64,000 nucleotides of DNA. Origin: Methylophilaceae bacterium (GTDB lineage: Bacteria > Pseudomonadota > Gammaproteobacteria > Burkholderiales > Methylophilaceae). Below are positions 45,248 through 54,395 of the stretch, piece by piece. A program made the translations under genes and the position numbers. A model generated the notes under the pieces. That model saw only the letters and a list, made by a program, of their open reading frames with translations. It was not told the origin of the DNA and did not search any database. Position 1 is the first letter of the stretch; each line of letters starts with the position of its first letter. Location of the stretch: the NCBI GenBank assembly GCA_965247415.1, contig OZ252007.1, positions 2,416,416 to 2,480,415 of the forward strand, written 5' to 3'.

Positions 45248-46432
45248 ATGGAATTTCAGGTAAAAGCAGTGCGTGGTGGGGCAGTGGTTTTTTTAAACCT
45301 TGTTGCTAATCATGCAGAAGATGCACTTTTGCAAGCGCGTGCGCGTGGTTACGCGCCTATATCAGCGCGTCCTGAAAAAAAATCAATACTGGCTGTAGGT
45401 AATACTAAAAAATTTCCGTTAGATCTTTTTAGCCAAGAGTTATTAGCGTTGCTTGAGGCTGGCATGAATTTGGTTGAAGCAATTGAAGCGCTCACAGAAA
45501 AAGAGGAGCGTTCTGAGGTGAAAAGCGTACTAGATGCCTTATTGCAATCGTTATATCAAGGGCAAACTTTATCTGCCGCGTTAGAGCAACAAGCGTCAAT
45601 TTTTCCTGTGCTATATATCTCTACCGTGCGCGCTAGTGAAAAATCGGGCGATTTGCCGGAAGCGCTTACACGTTATGTGAAATATGCTGAACAACTAGGT
45701 GTGCTAAAGAAAAAAATTGTAAGTGCTTCCATTTACCCGATGTTACTTTTAGCGGTTGGTAGTTTAGTGATTCTTTTTTTACTTGGCTTTGTAGTACCTA
45801 AATTTAGCAAAATTTATGAGGGCACGGGCGGCGATTTGCCGTGGATGTCTCAAGTGTTGATGGCTTGGGGGGTGTTGTTAGAAACACATGGCGAAGCAAT
45901 GTTGATTGGCTTGTTTGTTGCCGTGATTTTTTTAGTAATCGCACTTTCTCAACCAGCAACAAAAAAATGGATTGCGCAACTATTTTGGCGGATTCCAGCA
46001 TTTGGTAAAAAATTAAAAACCTATCAACTTGCTAGGTTTTATCGCACATTAGGCATGTTGCTCAAAGGTGGTACGGCGATTACTGCTGCCATGCAATCTG
46101 TCGCTGGCTTGCTTGACACCGCTTTGCAAAAAAATATGAATCAGGCGATTTTGGCAATATCTGAGGGTCAATCGCTTTCTGTTGCGTTTGAACAAGCTGG
46201 GCTGACTACACCCGTTGCGCTCAGAATGTTAAGGGTGGGTGAGCGGGGCGGCAATATCGGCGACATGATGGAGCGTGTTGCCAGCTTTTATGATGAAGAA
46301 CTTTCGCGTTGGATAGATTGGTTTACCAAATTATTTGAGCCAATTTTAATGCTTTTTATTGGCTTGGTGATTGGTGTCGTTGTCTTGCTACTTTATATGC
46401 CAATTTTTGAGCTAGCGGGCAATATTCAATGA
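45248..46432 (+). CDS. GspF/PilC-family platform protein (cluster 2)
   Basis: Paralog of 35513-36730 with the same C-terminus (ILMLFIGLVIGVVVLLLYMPIFELAGNI). The start is set to ATG 45248 (MEFQVKAVRGG) by alignment with its paralog. Confidence 0.9.
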   Translation: MEFQVKAVRGGAVVFLNLVANHAEDALLQARARGYAPISARPEKKSILAVGNTKKFPLDLFSQELLALLEAGMNLVEAIEALTEKEERSEVKSVLDALLQSLYQGQTLSAALEQQASIFPVLYISTVRASEKSGDLPEALTRYVKYAEQLGVLKKKIVSASIYPMLLLAVGSLVILFLLGFVVPKFSKIYEGTGGDLPWMSQVLMAWGVLLETHGEAMLIGLFVAVIFLVIALSQPATKKWIAQLFWRIPAFGKKLKTYQLARFYRTLGMLLKGGTAITAAMQSVAGLLDTALQKNMNQAILAISEGQSLSVAFEQAGLTTPVALRMLRVGERGGNIGDMMERVASFYDEELSRWIDWFTKLFEPILMLFIGLVIGVVVLLLYMPIFELAGNIQ

Positions 46433-48144
46433 TGATTGATACGCGCAATATACTTGAATTAGAAAGCATGCCTGCCATGTTAATTAATCCCATGCAAATC
46501 AAGCAGGCAAAGCTACAAGCGGCTTCGCAACAACGACGTGTGGTGGATGTGTTGGAAGATTTATTGGCAGTTGATCAAGCAGAATTTTTACAATCGCTCA
46601 GCAAAACATTTCAATATACCGCCATCAGCATGAAAGAAATGCATGCATTAAATGTTGCGTTTGATGTCATTTCATTTACCCAAGCCCAACAAAAAGAATG
46701 CATTGCTTTTGCGCAAGCAGATCAAAAAGTCATCATTGTGTTTGCAGATCCATTCAATGAAAATCTCTATGAATGGATTCTTTCAATCATGCAGCGCCCA
46801 TTTGAATGTCGCTTGGCGCATCGCAAAGATTTAGCCGCTTATTTGGCGCGGCACGAAGAAAGCATGCGTGCGATGGACGGTTTGCAGCAAAATCACGCAA
46901 GTTTAACGGCGGAATCTGATGAAGCTGTGACGCATCTATCCTTAAAATCAATTAATGAAGATACCAACCCGATTGTTAAACTGATTAATTCCACCTTGTA
47001 CGATGCATTAAAAGCGCAAGCCAGTGATATTCACATGGAATGCACACCGCTTGGTCTGGCAATTAAATACCGGATTGACGGCGTGATGGCGCATGTGGCC
47101 GGTATGCAGGGCATTGAAAATGCTGATCAAGCCATCTCGCGCATTAAAGTCATGGCGCAGCTAGACATTTCAGAACGGCGTATTCCGCAAGATGGCCGCT
47201 TTAAGGTAATTGTGCAAAATCGTGATGTAGATTTTCGTGTTTCCATTATGCCAAGTTCGTTTGGTGAAGATGCAGTATTGAGGGTGCTAGATAGAAAATC
47301 GTTAACTGAAGAAGCGCAAGGCTTGAGTTTGCATTCTTTAGGATTTGATGAAGATATTATTTTGCAATTTAGACAATTAGCCAGCGAGCCTTACGGCATG
47401 GTGCTGGTAACTGGGCCTACTGGTAGCGGGAAAACAACTTCTTTGTATGCCGCCATTACTGAGGTGAATACTGGCGTTGATAAAATTATTACCATTGAAG
47501 ATCCTGTGGAATATCAATTACCTGGTGTGTTACAAATTCCAGTGAATGAGAAAAAAGGGCTTACTTTTGCCAGAGGCTTACGTTCAATTTTACGGCACGA
47601 CCCTGACAAAATTATGGTGGGTGAAATTCGTGACCCAGAAACTGCACAAATTGCTGTGCAAGCAGCCCTGACAGGGCATTTGGTGTTTACCACAGTGCAT
47701 GCCAACAGCGTGCTGGATGTAATTGGTCGTTTTATGCATATGGGCGTAGACCCATACAATTTTGTTTCAGCAGTCAATGGTATTGTGGCACAGCGCTTGA
47801 TAAGAGAAATTTGTACGCATTGTGCAGAAGATTTTTACCCCAACGCAGCGTTATTAAAAGCTTCTGGATTAACACCAGAAGTGGCTTCCACCATGCGTTT
47901 TAAATTTTCAAAAGGGTGCGGACATTGCCGTGGCACAGGCTACAAAGGGCGCAAAGCAGTGGCGGAACTTTTAGTGCTCAATGATGAATTGCGTGAAATG
48001 ATTGTGGCGCGTGACCCAATTAGAAAGTTGAAGGAAGCCGCAAAGCGTTCTGGTATGCGCACCATTCGAGAAGCTGCGCTGGATGCAGCAGGGCGCGGAC
48101 TTACCACATTACAGGAGATTAATCGTGTCACTTTTGTCGCCTAA
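46429..48144 (+). CDS. GspE/PilB-family secretion ATPase (cluster 2)
   Basis: Walker A [26 protein letters not shown] and CTHC...[13 protein letters not shown]. The ATPase core looks highly similar to the cluster 1 copy by eye. ATGA overlap with gspF. Confidence 0.95.
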   Translation: [571 protein letters not shown]

Positions 48145-53314: not shown

Positions 53315-53728
53315 ATGAAAACATCTATAAGCTTCCAATTTGAATTGAAGTTAAAGCCCGCAATATTGGGTTTTACATTGGTTGAACTTTTAGTGGTTTT
53401 GGCTATATTAGCATTACTGATGACTATAGCAACGCCGCGCTACTTTAATGGCATTGACCGCGCAAAAGAATCGGCACTCAAGCAAGATTTAGCGACCTTA
53501 CGTGAAAGTATCGATCAATATTATTTAGATAAAGGCAAGTATCCAAGCACTTTAGAAGATTTAATTACCCATGAATATATCCGTAAACTCCCTGTCGACC
53601 CAATGACAGAAAGTGCAGAAACTTGGCAGGTTGTTCCGCCAGAGCCACCCTTAGAAGGTGATATTTATGATATTCACAGCGGGGCGACCGCAACTGCGAA
53701 AGATGGTAGCAAATATTCTGATTGGTAA
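53315..53728 (+). CDS. GspG-like pseudopilin B (cluster 2)
   Basis: LG/FTLVELLVVL with Glu5, YPSTLEDLI and LPVDPMT. The C-terminus is GSKYSDW. The start is set to ATG 53315. Confidence 0.8.
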   Translation: MKTSISFQFELKLKPAILGFTLVELLVVLAILALLMTIATPRYFNGIDRAKESALKQDLATLRESIDQYYLDKGKYPSTLEDLITHEYIRKLPVDPMTESAETWQVVPPEPPLEGDIYDIHSGATATAKDGSKYSDW

Positions 53729-54395
53729 TTCACGCCCACAAGTTGGATTTACTTACATGGGCTTATTGATGGTGCTAGCAATTTCAAGCATTGCGATGGC
53801 TGTGGTTGGCATTGTTTGGCACAAAGAAATGCAACGCGAACGTGAAAAAGAGCTCAAATTTATTGGCGAATCTTATAAAAAAGCGATTGGTAGTTATTAT
53901 GAGAGCAAAGTAAATGGGACAAAACAATTTCCCGAAAAGTTAGAAGAATTGCTTTTGGATGAACGCTTTCCAACCGTTAAACGCCATATTAGAAAATTAT
54001 ATGCTGACCCCTTTAATACAAAGCCACTCAACTTAGAAAAATCTTGGGGATTGGAATTGCAGCAGGGGAGAATTATTGGCGTTTATAGCTTGTCAGAAGA
54101 AAAAATCATTCAGCAAAATGATCAACATTCAAACAAACCAATAAAGTACAGCGAAATGAAATTTATCTATGTTCCAACCGCTACAAGCGCGCCAACCGTA
54201 GATACTAAATCACTTGATCAATTAGCGTTGCCTGAATCTTCAGCAACACACTTGCAATTACCAGAAACGCAGTCAGCTAAAGGTGAGCCAAACAATCAAA
54301 ATCAAGCAGACTCAAATGCGGAAACACATGTTCAAATTCCAGAAACACTGAATAATGTGCGTGCTATTAATGCACCAGCCATTTCAAAACCATAA
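53703..54395 (+). CDS. pseudopilin-like protein lacking Glu5 (cluster 2)
   Basis: VG/FTYMGLLMVLAISS with Gly at +5. It is homologous in position and N-terminal half to 43609-44169 (shared YY/YYE..P.G.K..P....DL.LD.RF....H.RK.Y.DP). Confidence 0.5.
   Translation: MVANILIGNSRPQVGFTYMGLLMVLAISSIAMAVVGIVWHKEMQREREKELKFIGESYKKAIGSYYESKVNGTKQFPEKLEELLLDERFPTVKRHIRKLYADPFNTKPLNLEKSWGLELQQGRIIGVYSLSEEKIIQQNDQHSNKPIKYSEMKFIYVPTATSAPTVDTKSLDQLALPESSATHLQLPETQSAKGEPNNQNQADSNAETHVQIPETLNNVRAINAPAISKP

Follow-up and report, generated by a model that had tools for sequence, protein, structure and literature searches.

Two diverged type II secretion-like gene clusters side by side at a tRNA-Ser gene in a Methylophilaceae bacterium

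The window analysed here, a 64,000-nucleotide (nt) stretch of contig OZ252007.1 of a Methylophilaceae bacterium (assembly GCA_965247415.1, positions 2,416,416 to 2,480,415), carries two gene clusters for machines akin to type II secretion systems (T2SS). Cluster 2 (45248-54395) consists of ten co-directional genes encoding a platform protein (F), an ATPase (E), PilM/GspL-like, PilN-, PilO- and PilP-like proteins (M, N, O and P), a secretin (D) and three pseudopilins (a, b and c); cluster 1 (35513-44169, + strand) has the same ten-gene order. Our best explanation, to which we assign a probability of about 70%, is that cluster 2 is this genome's resident version of an atypical, widespread T2SS-like machine and that cluster 1 represents an anciently separate lineage brought in by an insertion at tRNA-Ser. 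Both clusters belong to a branch of the type IV filament superfamily that resembles the T2SS but is atypical, with PilMNOP-like alignment proteins, a lipoprotein secretin (liposecretin) and a reduced pseudopilin set. Their occurrence side by side is a fairly ordinary flexible-island case and no new kind of system.

An earlier note on this DNA had reported that the ten-gene order recurs about 570 bp beyond attR, the right-hand repeat of an island, with an ATPase core that looked conserved by eye. The order is indeed the same, F2 starts 565 bp past attR, and the quoted ATPase string was reproduced exactly in the E1/E2 alignment. The pairwise identities and gene tree that the note had proposed were then determined. 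BLASTP comparison of cluster 1 with cluster 2 gave 53% identity for E, 42% for F, 26% for M, 21% each for N and O, about 30% (local) for P, 38% for D, and 48%, 49% and 31% for the first, second and third pseudopilins. Orthologues in many Methylophilaceae assemblies are 72-82% identical for E2 and 75-81% for E1. A neighbour-joining tree of 44 ATPase sequences recovered an E1 clade and an E2 clade, each in 100/100 bootstraps. Mean ATPase identity is 78% within E1, 74% within E2 and 54% between them, and E2 is nearer to its Gallionellaceae/Thiobacillus orthologues (60%) than to E1 (54%).

These values bear directly on whether a recent tandem duplication, within the genome or the lineage, made the two clusters. 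Such an origin would fit their adjacency, their identical gene order and the long identical stretches of the ATPase core, but it is very improbable: E, at 53%, and the other genes, at 21-49%, fall well short of the 72-82% by which the ATPase resembles its own orthologues, just 1/100 bootstraps pairs E1 and E2 as exclusive sisters, other genomes hold the two types apart, and an att site separates the clusters. Related loci (labelled L001 and so on) were mapped by synteny with ±10 kb flanks. Methylotenera sp. GCA_029945535.1 holds both cluster types on separate contigs, and cluster-1-type modules lie among core genes in seven other loci with no cluster-2-type locus within 10 kb, in at least three core contexts (between tol-pal/queC and rpsP-rimM, between gluQ and a serralysin-like protease gene, and between flagellar genes and pheT). 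The clusters are ancient paralogues or xenologues of one family and no local duplication, and their adjacency here is a by-product of the tRNA-Ser insertion. The note's term "paralogous copy" is apt in that both machines are homologous and apparently complete, but it overstates their closeness, given the separate clades. The note had also allowed that both might be ancient, vertically inherited paralogues present in relatives regardless of the island, and this is largely what was found, since both types occur in relatives independently of it.

Evidence for the insertion comes from terminal repeats and from a related locus. A pattern search for the 29-nt repeat formed by the 3' end of tRNA-Ser(tga) and its copy, attR, gave 2 matches against 0 expected by chance. 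In a Methylophilaceae metagenome-assembled genome (L009), the genes mtnN-def-tRNA-Ser(tga) are followed 75 bp on by a cluster-2-type locus with no insert, and the 32.5 kb segment between the repeats is therefore an insertion relative to L009. The left flank of the segment consists of core genes (smc, zipA, ligA, msrPQ, mtnN and def). The description of cluster 1 as island-borne is thus supported in this genome by the att repeats and the empty site of L009. Because the L009 cluster is inverted relative to the tRNA, the position of cluster 2 beside the tRNA may be old or recurrent; as a cluster-2-type locus abuts tRNA-Ser(tga) in L009, albeit inverted, cluster 2 may itself be an older accretion at the same tRNA. 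A search downstream of cluster 2 found no further degenerate att copies. Just inside each end of the segment lies a 20-nt repeat (Table 1), with a partial third copy at 44565-44584, and these repeats are candidate arm-type recombinase sites.

Other tRNA genes also lie within 3 kb of cluster-type loci: Ser-tga in L009 (9646-9735), Pro in L003 (18127-18203) and Gly and Cys in L001 (5542-5795). This hints that both module types favour flexible, tRNA-linked regions. Methylophilaceae islands that carry T2SS-like clusters have been described before (PMC3728764, PMC10872708). The island cluster of M. mobilis JLW8, mmol_1380-1409, showed expression up to 1000-fold lower on methylamine than on methanol, and a second Methylophilaceae T2SS-like cluster is conserved across species (PMC3728764).

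Table 1. Features of the two clusters, the att-bounded segment and the region downstream of cluster 2 (window coordinates).
Feature	Position	Strand	Evidence or remark
tRNA-Ser(tga)	12020..12109	+	ARAGORN; last 29 nt (12081-12109) are attL
Att-bounded segment, 32.5 kb, additive-island-like	12110..44653		att repeats and L009
20-nt repeat TTTGGGCTAAATTTGGGCTA	12152..12171	+	43 nt downstream of tRNA end; has a perfect second copy
364-aa regulator upstream of cluster 1	33017..34111	+	weak LuxR/GerE-type helix-turn-helix
DUF336/HbpS-like protein with signal peptide	34181..34981	+	PF03928
GspG-type major pseudopilin	35094..35510	+	TIGR01710, 138.7 bits (cut-off 88.85); PDB GspG matches
F1	35513..36730	+	
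E1	36739..38391	+	
M1	~38372..39148	+	
N1	39166..39693	+	
O1	39681..40241	+	
P1	40238..40783	+	
D1, liposecretin	40776..42698	+	
a1	42701..43222	+	
b1	43216..43605	+	
c1	43609..44169	+	
20-nt repeat, second copy	44554..44573	+	81 nt upstream of attR
attR	44654..44682	+	direct repeat; perfect 29-nt copy of tRNA-Ser 3' end
F2, inner-membrane platform protein, two T2SSF domains	45248..46432	+	PF00482, 2e-49
E2, assembly ATPase	46429..48144	+	PF00437 (2e-126), PF05157
M2, 285 aa, cytoplasmic actin-like PilM/cyto-GspL homologue	48125..48982	+	AlphaFold2 and Foldseek
N2, bitopic, PilN/GspL-periplasmic-like	48979..49557	+	PF05137 weak, 20.1 bits; start approximate
O2, PilO/GspM-like	49554..50138	+	PF04350 weak
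P2, bitopic, proline-rich linker	50160..50831	+	position kept in all loci mapped
D2, lipoprotein secretin	50857..52800	+	lipobox LTAC; PF00263/PF03958/PF07660 and TPR
Pseudopilin a2, G/FTLIE	52825..53301	+	PF07963; Glu5 present
Pseudopilin b2, G/FTLVE	53315..53728	+	PF08334, PF07963
Pseudopilin c2, G/FTYMG	53703..54395	+	prepilin-type N-terminus; lacks Glu5
SLT lytic transglycosylase	54431..55189	-	PF01464
EpsA, XrtB/PEP-CTERM-associated LuxR-type regulator	55424..56275	+	TIGR03020, 204.2 bits (cut-off 170)
DsbC/DsbG-type periplasmic disulfide isomerase	56360..57124	-	also in L004
PEP-CTERM protein with signal peptide, C-terminal tail VPEPESYAMMLAGLALLGGVSRRR	57680..58525	+	PF07589, 32.5 bits (cut-off 20.7)
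501-aa signal-peptide protein of no known family	58685..60190	+	

The order (G)-F-E-M-N-O-P-D-a-b-c was found in 40+ loci of the sampled genomes, in Betaproteobacteria, Pseudomonas and Desulfuromonadales; among the matches listed, the groups with this order are Methylophilaceae, Gallionellaceae, Thiobacillus, Rhodocyclales, Burkholderiales and Acidiferrobacterales. Loci mapped by synteny include Dechloromonas, Azoarcus and Geobacter, and E is 50-61% identical to family members. The Pseudomonas loci run from E through c, with 57% E identity and no G or F within 10 kb, the Desulfuromonadales/Geobacter loci read F-E-...-D-a-b, and Acidobacteriota carry more diverged forms. At least 39 of the 46 secretins from the family carry a lipobox. 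The taxa recovered coincide with a published list: Haft et al. ranked NE1609, a "T2SS protein E", 34th among the matches to the PEP-CTERM phylogenetic profile, with the homologues PP3483, Pfl_1982, Tbd_1295, Daro_3223, ebA1226 and GSU1783 (PMC1569441).

All genes of cluster 2 are intact and of the length seen in orthologues. Their overlapping starts, described in the earlier note, are real at F/E and N/O and probable at M/N, but the other junctions are small gaps. Family assignments used the equivalog cut-offs of the NCBIfam models and Pfam domains. F2 is 72% identical to its L001/L004 orthologues and falls below the cut-off of the GspF model (TIGR02120; 279 bits, cut-off 424). E2 has a Walker A motif, a CxxC...CxxC zinc motif and an MshEN-type N-domain, and reached neither the GspE cut-off (TIGR02533; 499 bits, cut-off 630) nor that of PilB (512 bits, cut-off 676). 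Against solved structures in the PDB it scored 375 bits with PilB and 350 bits with GspE, so that E is equidistant from both.

The third gene had been called PilM/L-like, and this was confirmed by fold, not by sequence. The M2 family gave no sequence match in Pfam (single members) or the PDB (profiles of 13, 23 and 89 sequences), and a homologous-protein search with M2 as query returned only M2 itself. An AlphaFold2 model from an 89-sequence alignment (88 homologues from a representative library) had a predicted local distance difference test score (pLDDT) of 90.9 and a predicted template modelling score of 0.88; a run on a 2-sequence M alignment had reached a pLDDT of only 40.6. Foldseek matched the model to P. 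aeruginosa PilM (E = 2e-13), V. cholerae cyto-EpsL (1.5e-12) and GspL in complex with GspE (2.7e-10), and the PulL cytoplasmic domain was also matched. The PilM/GspL-fold M proteins comprise 982 representative clusters at 50% identity with no Pfam model, an unannotated family that could receive one.

Of the remaining periplasmic components, O1, the counterpart of O2, weakly matches T2SSM_b, while P2, with no family match in Pfam/NCBIfam searches, is assigned as PilP/GspC-HR-like by position only. D2 combines a TPR N-domain with STN/N0, N1 and secretin domains. Its scores lie below the cut-offs for GspD (TIGR02517; 148 bits, cut-off 351), PilQ (142 bits, cut-off 284) and MshL, and the best PDB match of the secretin is 8JVB. 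Model searches of cluster 2 found no GspC, GspI or GspK match and no PDZ domain, and matches to GspH and GspJ stayed at or below 25 bits against cut-offs of 65-80. The pseudopilins a2 and b2 matched the GspG model (TIGR01710) below threshold, at 50 and 64 bits respectively, and the mature length of b2, 118 aa, is kept across most of the family. Family-wide, a and b keep Glu5, and position +5 of c is occupied by Gly or some other residue; c2, which like its orthologues lacks Glu5, is therefore a candidate tip or initiator subunit.

Cluster 2 lacks gspG and the DUF336 gene, as the note had said, and tblastn revealed no remnant of either. The closest cluster-2-type relative, L004, also lacks gspG, which is present in L001, L007-L010 and L087. 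Destruction of gspG by the island insertion was considered and rejected, since there is no remnant and L004 likewise lacks the gene. Geobacter loci are also devoid of a G-type gene, so a, b and c may be sufficient. Scans for sigma-54 (-24/-12) and sigma-70 promoters upstream of F2 and of the PEP-CTERM gene gave counts no higher than chance.

We also weighed whether the machines might form an extended fibre on the cell surface, akin to a type IV pilus and serving adhesion or aggregation, and secrete no protein. The M-N-O-P-secretin order is that of PilMNOPQ, the ATPase scores slightly higher with PilB than with GspE, M best matches PilM, and the cluster adjoins matrix and adhesion genes; Vorobev et al. 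referred to the M. mobilis island cluster as "unique pilus genes" (PMC3728764). However, the major subunit, where present, is of GspG type and above the GspG equivalog cut-off, the fused M-N forms are GspL-like, and Pfam/NCBIfam scans found no PilA-type pilin, PilT or PilY1 in or beside either cluster. A homologous Pseudomonas system was reportedly found by de Vrind in 2003 to be needed for multicopper oxidase secretion. The same requirement is described for the homologous Geobacter system (PMC3543383). On balance, we regard a surface fibre as unlikely, and a secretion machine remains our preferred interpretation.

Cluster 1 differs from cluster 2 in its upstream genes. A DUF336 gene is the first gene and the hallmark of all cluster-1-type loci (L002, L003, L005, L043, L088 and L089), and its invariant signal-peptide product is a candidate partner or cargo of this type. 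The 364-aa regulator upstream is related, at 41%, to the GerE regulator encoded downstream of L002, a cluster-1-type locus. The gspG gene ahead of F1 is the only one in the region, and its product carries a Glu5 to Gly change (codon GGG at 35136-35138), reading G/FTLLG where 31/31 orthologues have FTLLE. Both PulG and type IV pilins need Glu5 for their subunits to be extracted and assembled; Gly5 in the cluster-1 GspG may therefore be an inactivating change, or else an error of sequencing. The earlier note had left room for inactivating mutations that it did not detect, and this is one candidate, in cluster 1, with the cluster 2 genes intact.

The Gly5 residue, unique among 32 sequences, raises the possibility that cluster 1 is a decaying, non-functional passenger and that only cluster 2 matters, which the IS3 element and lack of an integrase in the segment would also suit. 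Against this, the ten other open reading frames (ORFs) are intact and of orthologous length, the split of M and N recurs in L088 and L089, and one changed base may be tolerated or may reflect a sequencing error. We consider such decay unlikely. In L002, L003, L005 and L043, M and N form one fused GspL-like ORF of 432-453 aa, and the fused orthologues match PilN and GspL_C; M and N are two genes in L088, L089 and the window (38372-39693), and the flanks of L005 and L088 are identical. The fused or split state looks like a natural fusion/fission polymorphism. A frameshift lesion as the cause of the M/N split in cluster 1 was rejected, as L088 and L089 also have separate M and N genes.

Downstream of cluster 2, the SLT transglycosylase, EpsA-like regulator, DsbC/G and PEP-CTERM genes that the note had listed were all confirmed, EpsA at a score above the NCBIfam cut-off. 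The PEP-CTERM protein also matches TIGR02595 (21.8 bits, cut-off 16). An SLT gene lies directly downstream of cluster-2-type loci L001, L004, L011 and L087 too, and EpsA is conserved in L001, L004, L010 and L087. The context of SLT, EpsA/GerE and PEP-CTERM is kept in L001, L004, L087 and L010, and partly in L011, L007 and L008. In Methylophilaceae, the cluster-2 type has PEP-CTERM genes upstream and, on its downstream side, SLT, EpsA/GerE, in some cases DsbC, and a PEP-CTERM gene; flanking PEP-CTERM genes are present at L001, L004, L007, L008, L087, L035 and L038. In a Pfam scan of 132 flanking ORFs at 20 betaproteobacterial loci, used because a PEP-CTERM regular expression missed known cases, PEP-CTERM and GerE were the most recurrent families. 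The gene of no known family that follows the PEP-CTERM gene has a counterpart in the same place in L001 and L087.

With the cluster-2-type locus embedded in an EpsA/PEP-CTERM matrix locus, the neighbouring PEP-CTERM and signal-peptide proteins would be its likeliest cargo, and the PEP-CTERM protein and the 501-aa protein of the window are candidates. PhoX alkaline phosphatase genes beside cluster-2-type loci (4/132 flank ORFs, including L017 1713-3878 and L035 1481-3640) encode possible alternative cargo, as does the alkaline phosphatase gene that adjoins the PEP-CTERM gene in L087. Beyond the 501-aa protein, a giant ORF (about 60370-64000, + strand, >1200 aa) runs off the end of the window; it starts with MNHGIYRLVFNEVRGLWMVV, a signal peptide of the extended form that is typical of exoproteins of the two-partner-secretion or FhaB-like kind.

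The same neighbourhood could be read as that of a machine that exports or organises exopolysaccharide in place of proteins, a role that has been proposed for the cyanobacterial Hps pseudopilin systems. Relatives' loci do lie among genes for glycosyltransferases, a priming sugar transferase, acyltransferases and NTP-transferases, cluster 2 adjoins EpsA, and a2 has a weak HpsC match. That match, however, is far under its cut-off (16 vs 200 bits), the machine contains no polysaccharide-handling domain, and homologues outside PEP-CTERM taxa have no exopolysaccharide neighbours. Glycosyltransferase or sugar-transferase genes lie upstream at L004 and L087 only, which acyltransferase genes also flank. 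We therefore think polysaccharide export a poor prospect, and protein secretion stays the preferred role.

By analogy with the T2SS, E would drive F-dependent polymerisation of a short periplasmic pseudopilus, made of G, or of a and b, with c as primer, and this pseudopilus would push folded periplasmic proteins outward through the secretin D. The SLT transglycosylase would open the peptidoglycan for machine assembly, and DsbC would serve disulfide-rich cargo. Cluster 1, which always has DUF336 and GspG ahead of it and occupies various chromosomal sites elsewhere, would have been placed beside cluster 2 by the 32.5 kb insertion. As cluster 2 lacks GspG and that of cluster 1 carries Gly5, pseudopilins may be shared between the two machines or competed for.

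The atypical T2SS-like locus, consistently wedged between PEP-CTERM genes and EpsA in Methylophilaceae and some Rhodocyclales, offers a concrete candidate for the missing step that takes PEP-CTERM proteins across the outer membrane. More tentatively, the cluster-2-type machine might serve the EpsA/XrtB PEP-CTERM system as its dedicated route of export across the outer membrane, a reading that we advance as speculative. PEP-CTERM proteins and the 501-aa neighbour would then be processed by exosortase and pass through the TPR liposecretin by means of the a-b-c pseudopilus. If true, PEP-CTERM would join GlyGly-CTERM and MYXO-CTERM as a third C-terminal sorting tag that works with a T2SS-type machine. 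The window also provides a natural comparison, with two diverged versions of the machine in one cell, different neighbours and perhaps a defective pseudopilin, which might reveal how substrate specificity is determined in the atypical T2SS family. For this family, we know of genetic data only from Pseudomonas Xcm and Geobacter Oxp.

Several observations weigh against parts of this interpretation. No Phage_integrase match was found among 20 segment ORFs, the sole recombinase-type gene being the IS3 rve transposase. The segment deviates in G+C content (GC) only at 13-22 kb (46-47% vs 35-41% elsewhere), which suggests that the island is composite; the GC of cluster 1 (36-43%) is like that of cluster 2 and the flanks. 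The ATPase tree (neighbour-joining, 100 bootstraps) had no true outgroup, and the genome scan for the family covered a sample of genomes, so that its distribution figures are lower bounds. Neither cluster 2 nor L004 has a GspG-type major pseudopilin, and the sole one nearby carries Gly5. The PEP-CTERM link is lineage-specific, being absent from the Pseudomonas, Geobacter and Acidobacteria loci, and no exosortase match was found among the scanned window ORFs or within ±10 kb of related loci. Finally, the secretion role and the cargo are proposed from homology and neighbourhood.

Apart from cluster 1, the segment carries metabolic genes, two operons for ribosomally synthesized and post-translationally modified peptides (RiPPs), an IS3 transposase, a GGDEF-EAL gene and a regulator. 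Genes at 13000-22000 encode DUF1348, GST, a PNPOx-ferredoxin reductase, a LysR regulator, a nitrilase and CMD proteins. The first RiPP operon (15749-18171, - strand) comprises a DUF2282-type precursor (17872-18171), a DUF692/MbnB-like gene, DUF2063 and DoxX; the second (23907-25962, - strand) has a Cys-rich precursor (25612-25962) that contains three 39-nt tandem repeats, DUF692 and DUF2063. Both operons are bufferin-like, resembling those of copper-stress bufferins. The IS3-family transposase (orfA/orfB, rve domain; 28532-29766, + strand) sits mid-segment and may have joined separate cargo blocks. Upstream of cluster 1, a GGDEF-EAL protein with a 4HB_MCP sensor domain is encoded at 30001-31953 (+ strand), and a GGDEF gene is also found upstream of the L005 and L088 loci; together with the MshEN-type N-domain of E, these genes hint at control by cyclic di-GMP. 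The small ORFs beside attR gave no family matches.

The segment resembles the additive tRNA islands described in Methylophilaceae, whose ends repeat the final 20-29 nt of a tRNA gene, whose cargo is variable and among whose insertions T2SS operons are reported; those islands, however, occupy tRNA-Lys in "Ca. Methylopumilus" and carry a canonical gspCDEFLMGHIJKO operon (PMC10872708). The proposed PEP-CTERM link likewise has a precedent in the T2SS-dependent surface display of GlyGly-CTERM/rhombosortase and MYXO-CTERM/myxosortase proteins (PMC11980579). Those systems share the pairing of a T2SS with a C-terminal sorting tag and a surface or matrix destination, but they use a canonical T2SS, other tags and other proteases, and the PEP-CTERM link here is one of synteny only.

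Among T2SS-like machines, Pseudomonas provides one close relative. With PMC1569441 and PMC4509608 as a guide, we take the Pseudomonas loci of the family to be probably the Xcm pathway of P. putida GB-1. The work of de Vrind et al. in 2003 is said to describe xcmT1/xcmS as a two-gene operon, with xcmR, xcmQ, xcmT2, xcmT3 and xcmX clustered, and the cargo is reportedly a Mn-oxidising factor. The E-to-c loci with no nearby G or F fit this split layout, whereas G and F are contiguous with the rest in cluster 1 and G is missing in cluster 2.

The Geobacter "Pul" system (Mehta et al. 2006, as summarised in PMC3543383) has the pseudopilins PulG, OxpG and TklG and is required for secretion of the multicopper oxidase OmpB, and the whole Pul/Oxp system is duplicated in Pelobacter carbinolicus. 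Its ATPase belongs to the same family (50-54% identity to E2; GSU1783 is listed with NE1609), and it shares the order F-E-(M)-N-O-P-secretin-a-b, three pseudopilins in place of GspG-K and a lipoprotein secretin. It differs in having no GspG-type gene, DUF336, EpsA or PEP-CTERM neighbours. The window clusters have no OmpB gene nearby, and no multicopper oxidase gene was found among the window ORFs scanned; this comparison used the family loci and not the published G. sulfurreducens genes directly.

The type IVa pilus shares with the window clusters the M-N-O-P-secretin order, the PilM fold and the PilB-like ATPase score, but the clusters have no PilA-type major pilin, PilT/PilU or PilVWXY1, their E and D lie below the PilB and PilQ cut-offs, and the window's major subunit is of GspG type. 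With the canonical Gsp T2SS they have in common E, F, D, in cluster 1 a G-type pseudopilin with Gly5, an L-like component (M plus N), an M-like component (O), prepilin-type leaders and a presumed piston mechanism. They depart from it in E, F and D proteins below the equivalog cut-offs, three small pseudopilins with no GspH/I/J/K, no GspC with a PDZ domain, a GspL split into PilM-like and PilN-like genes, and a secretin that is a TPR lipoprotein.

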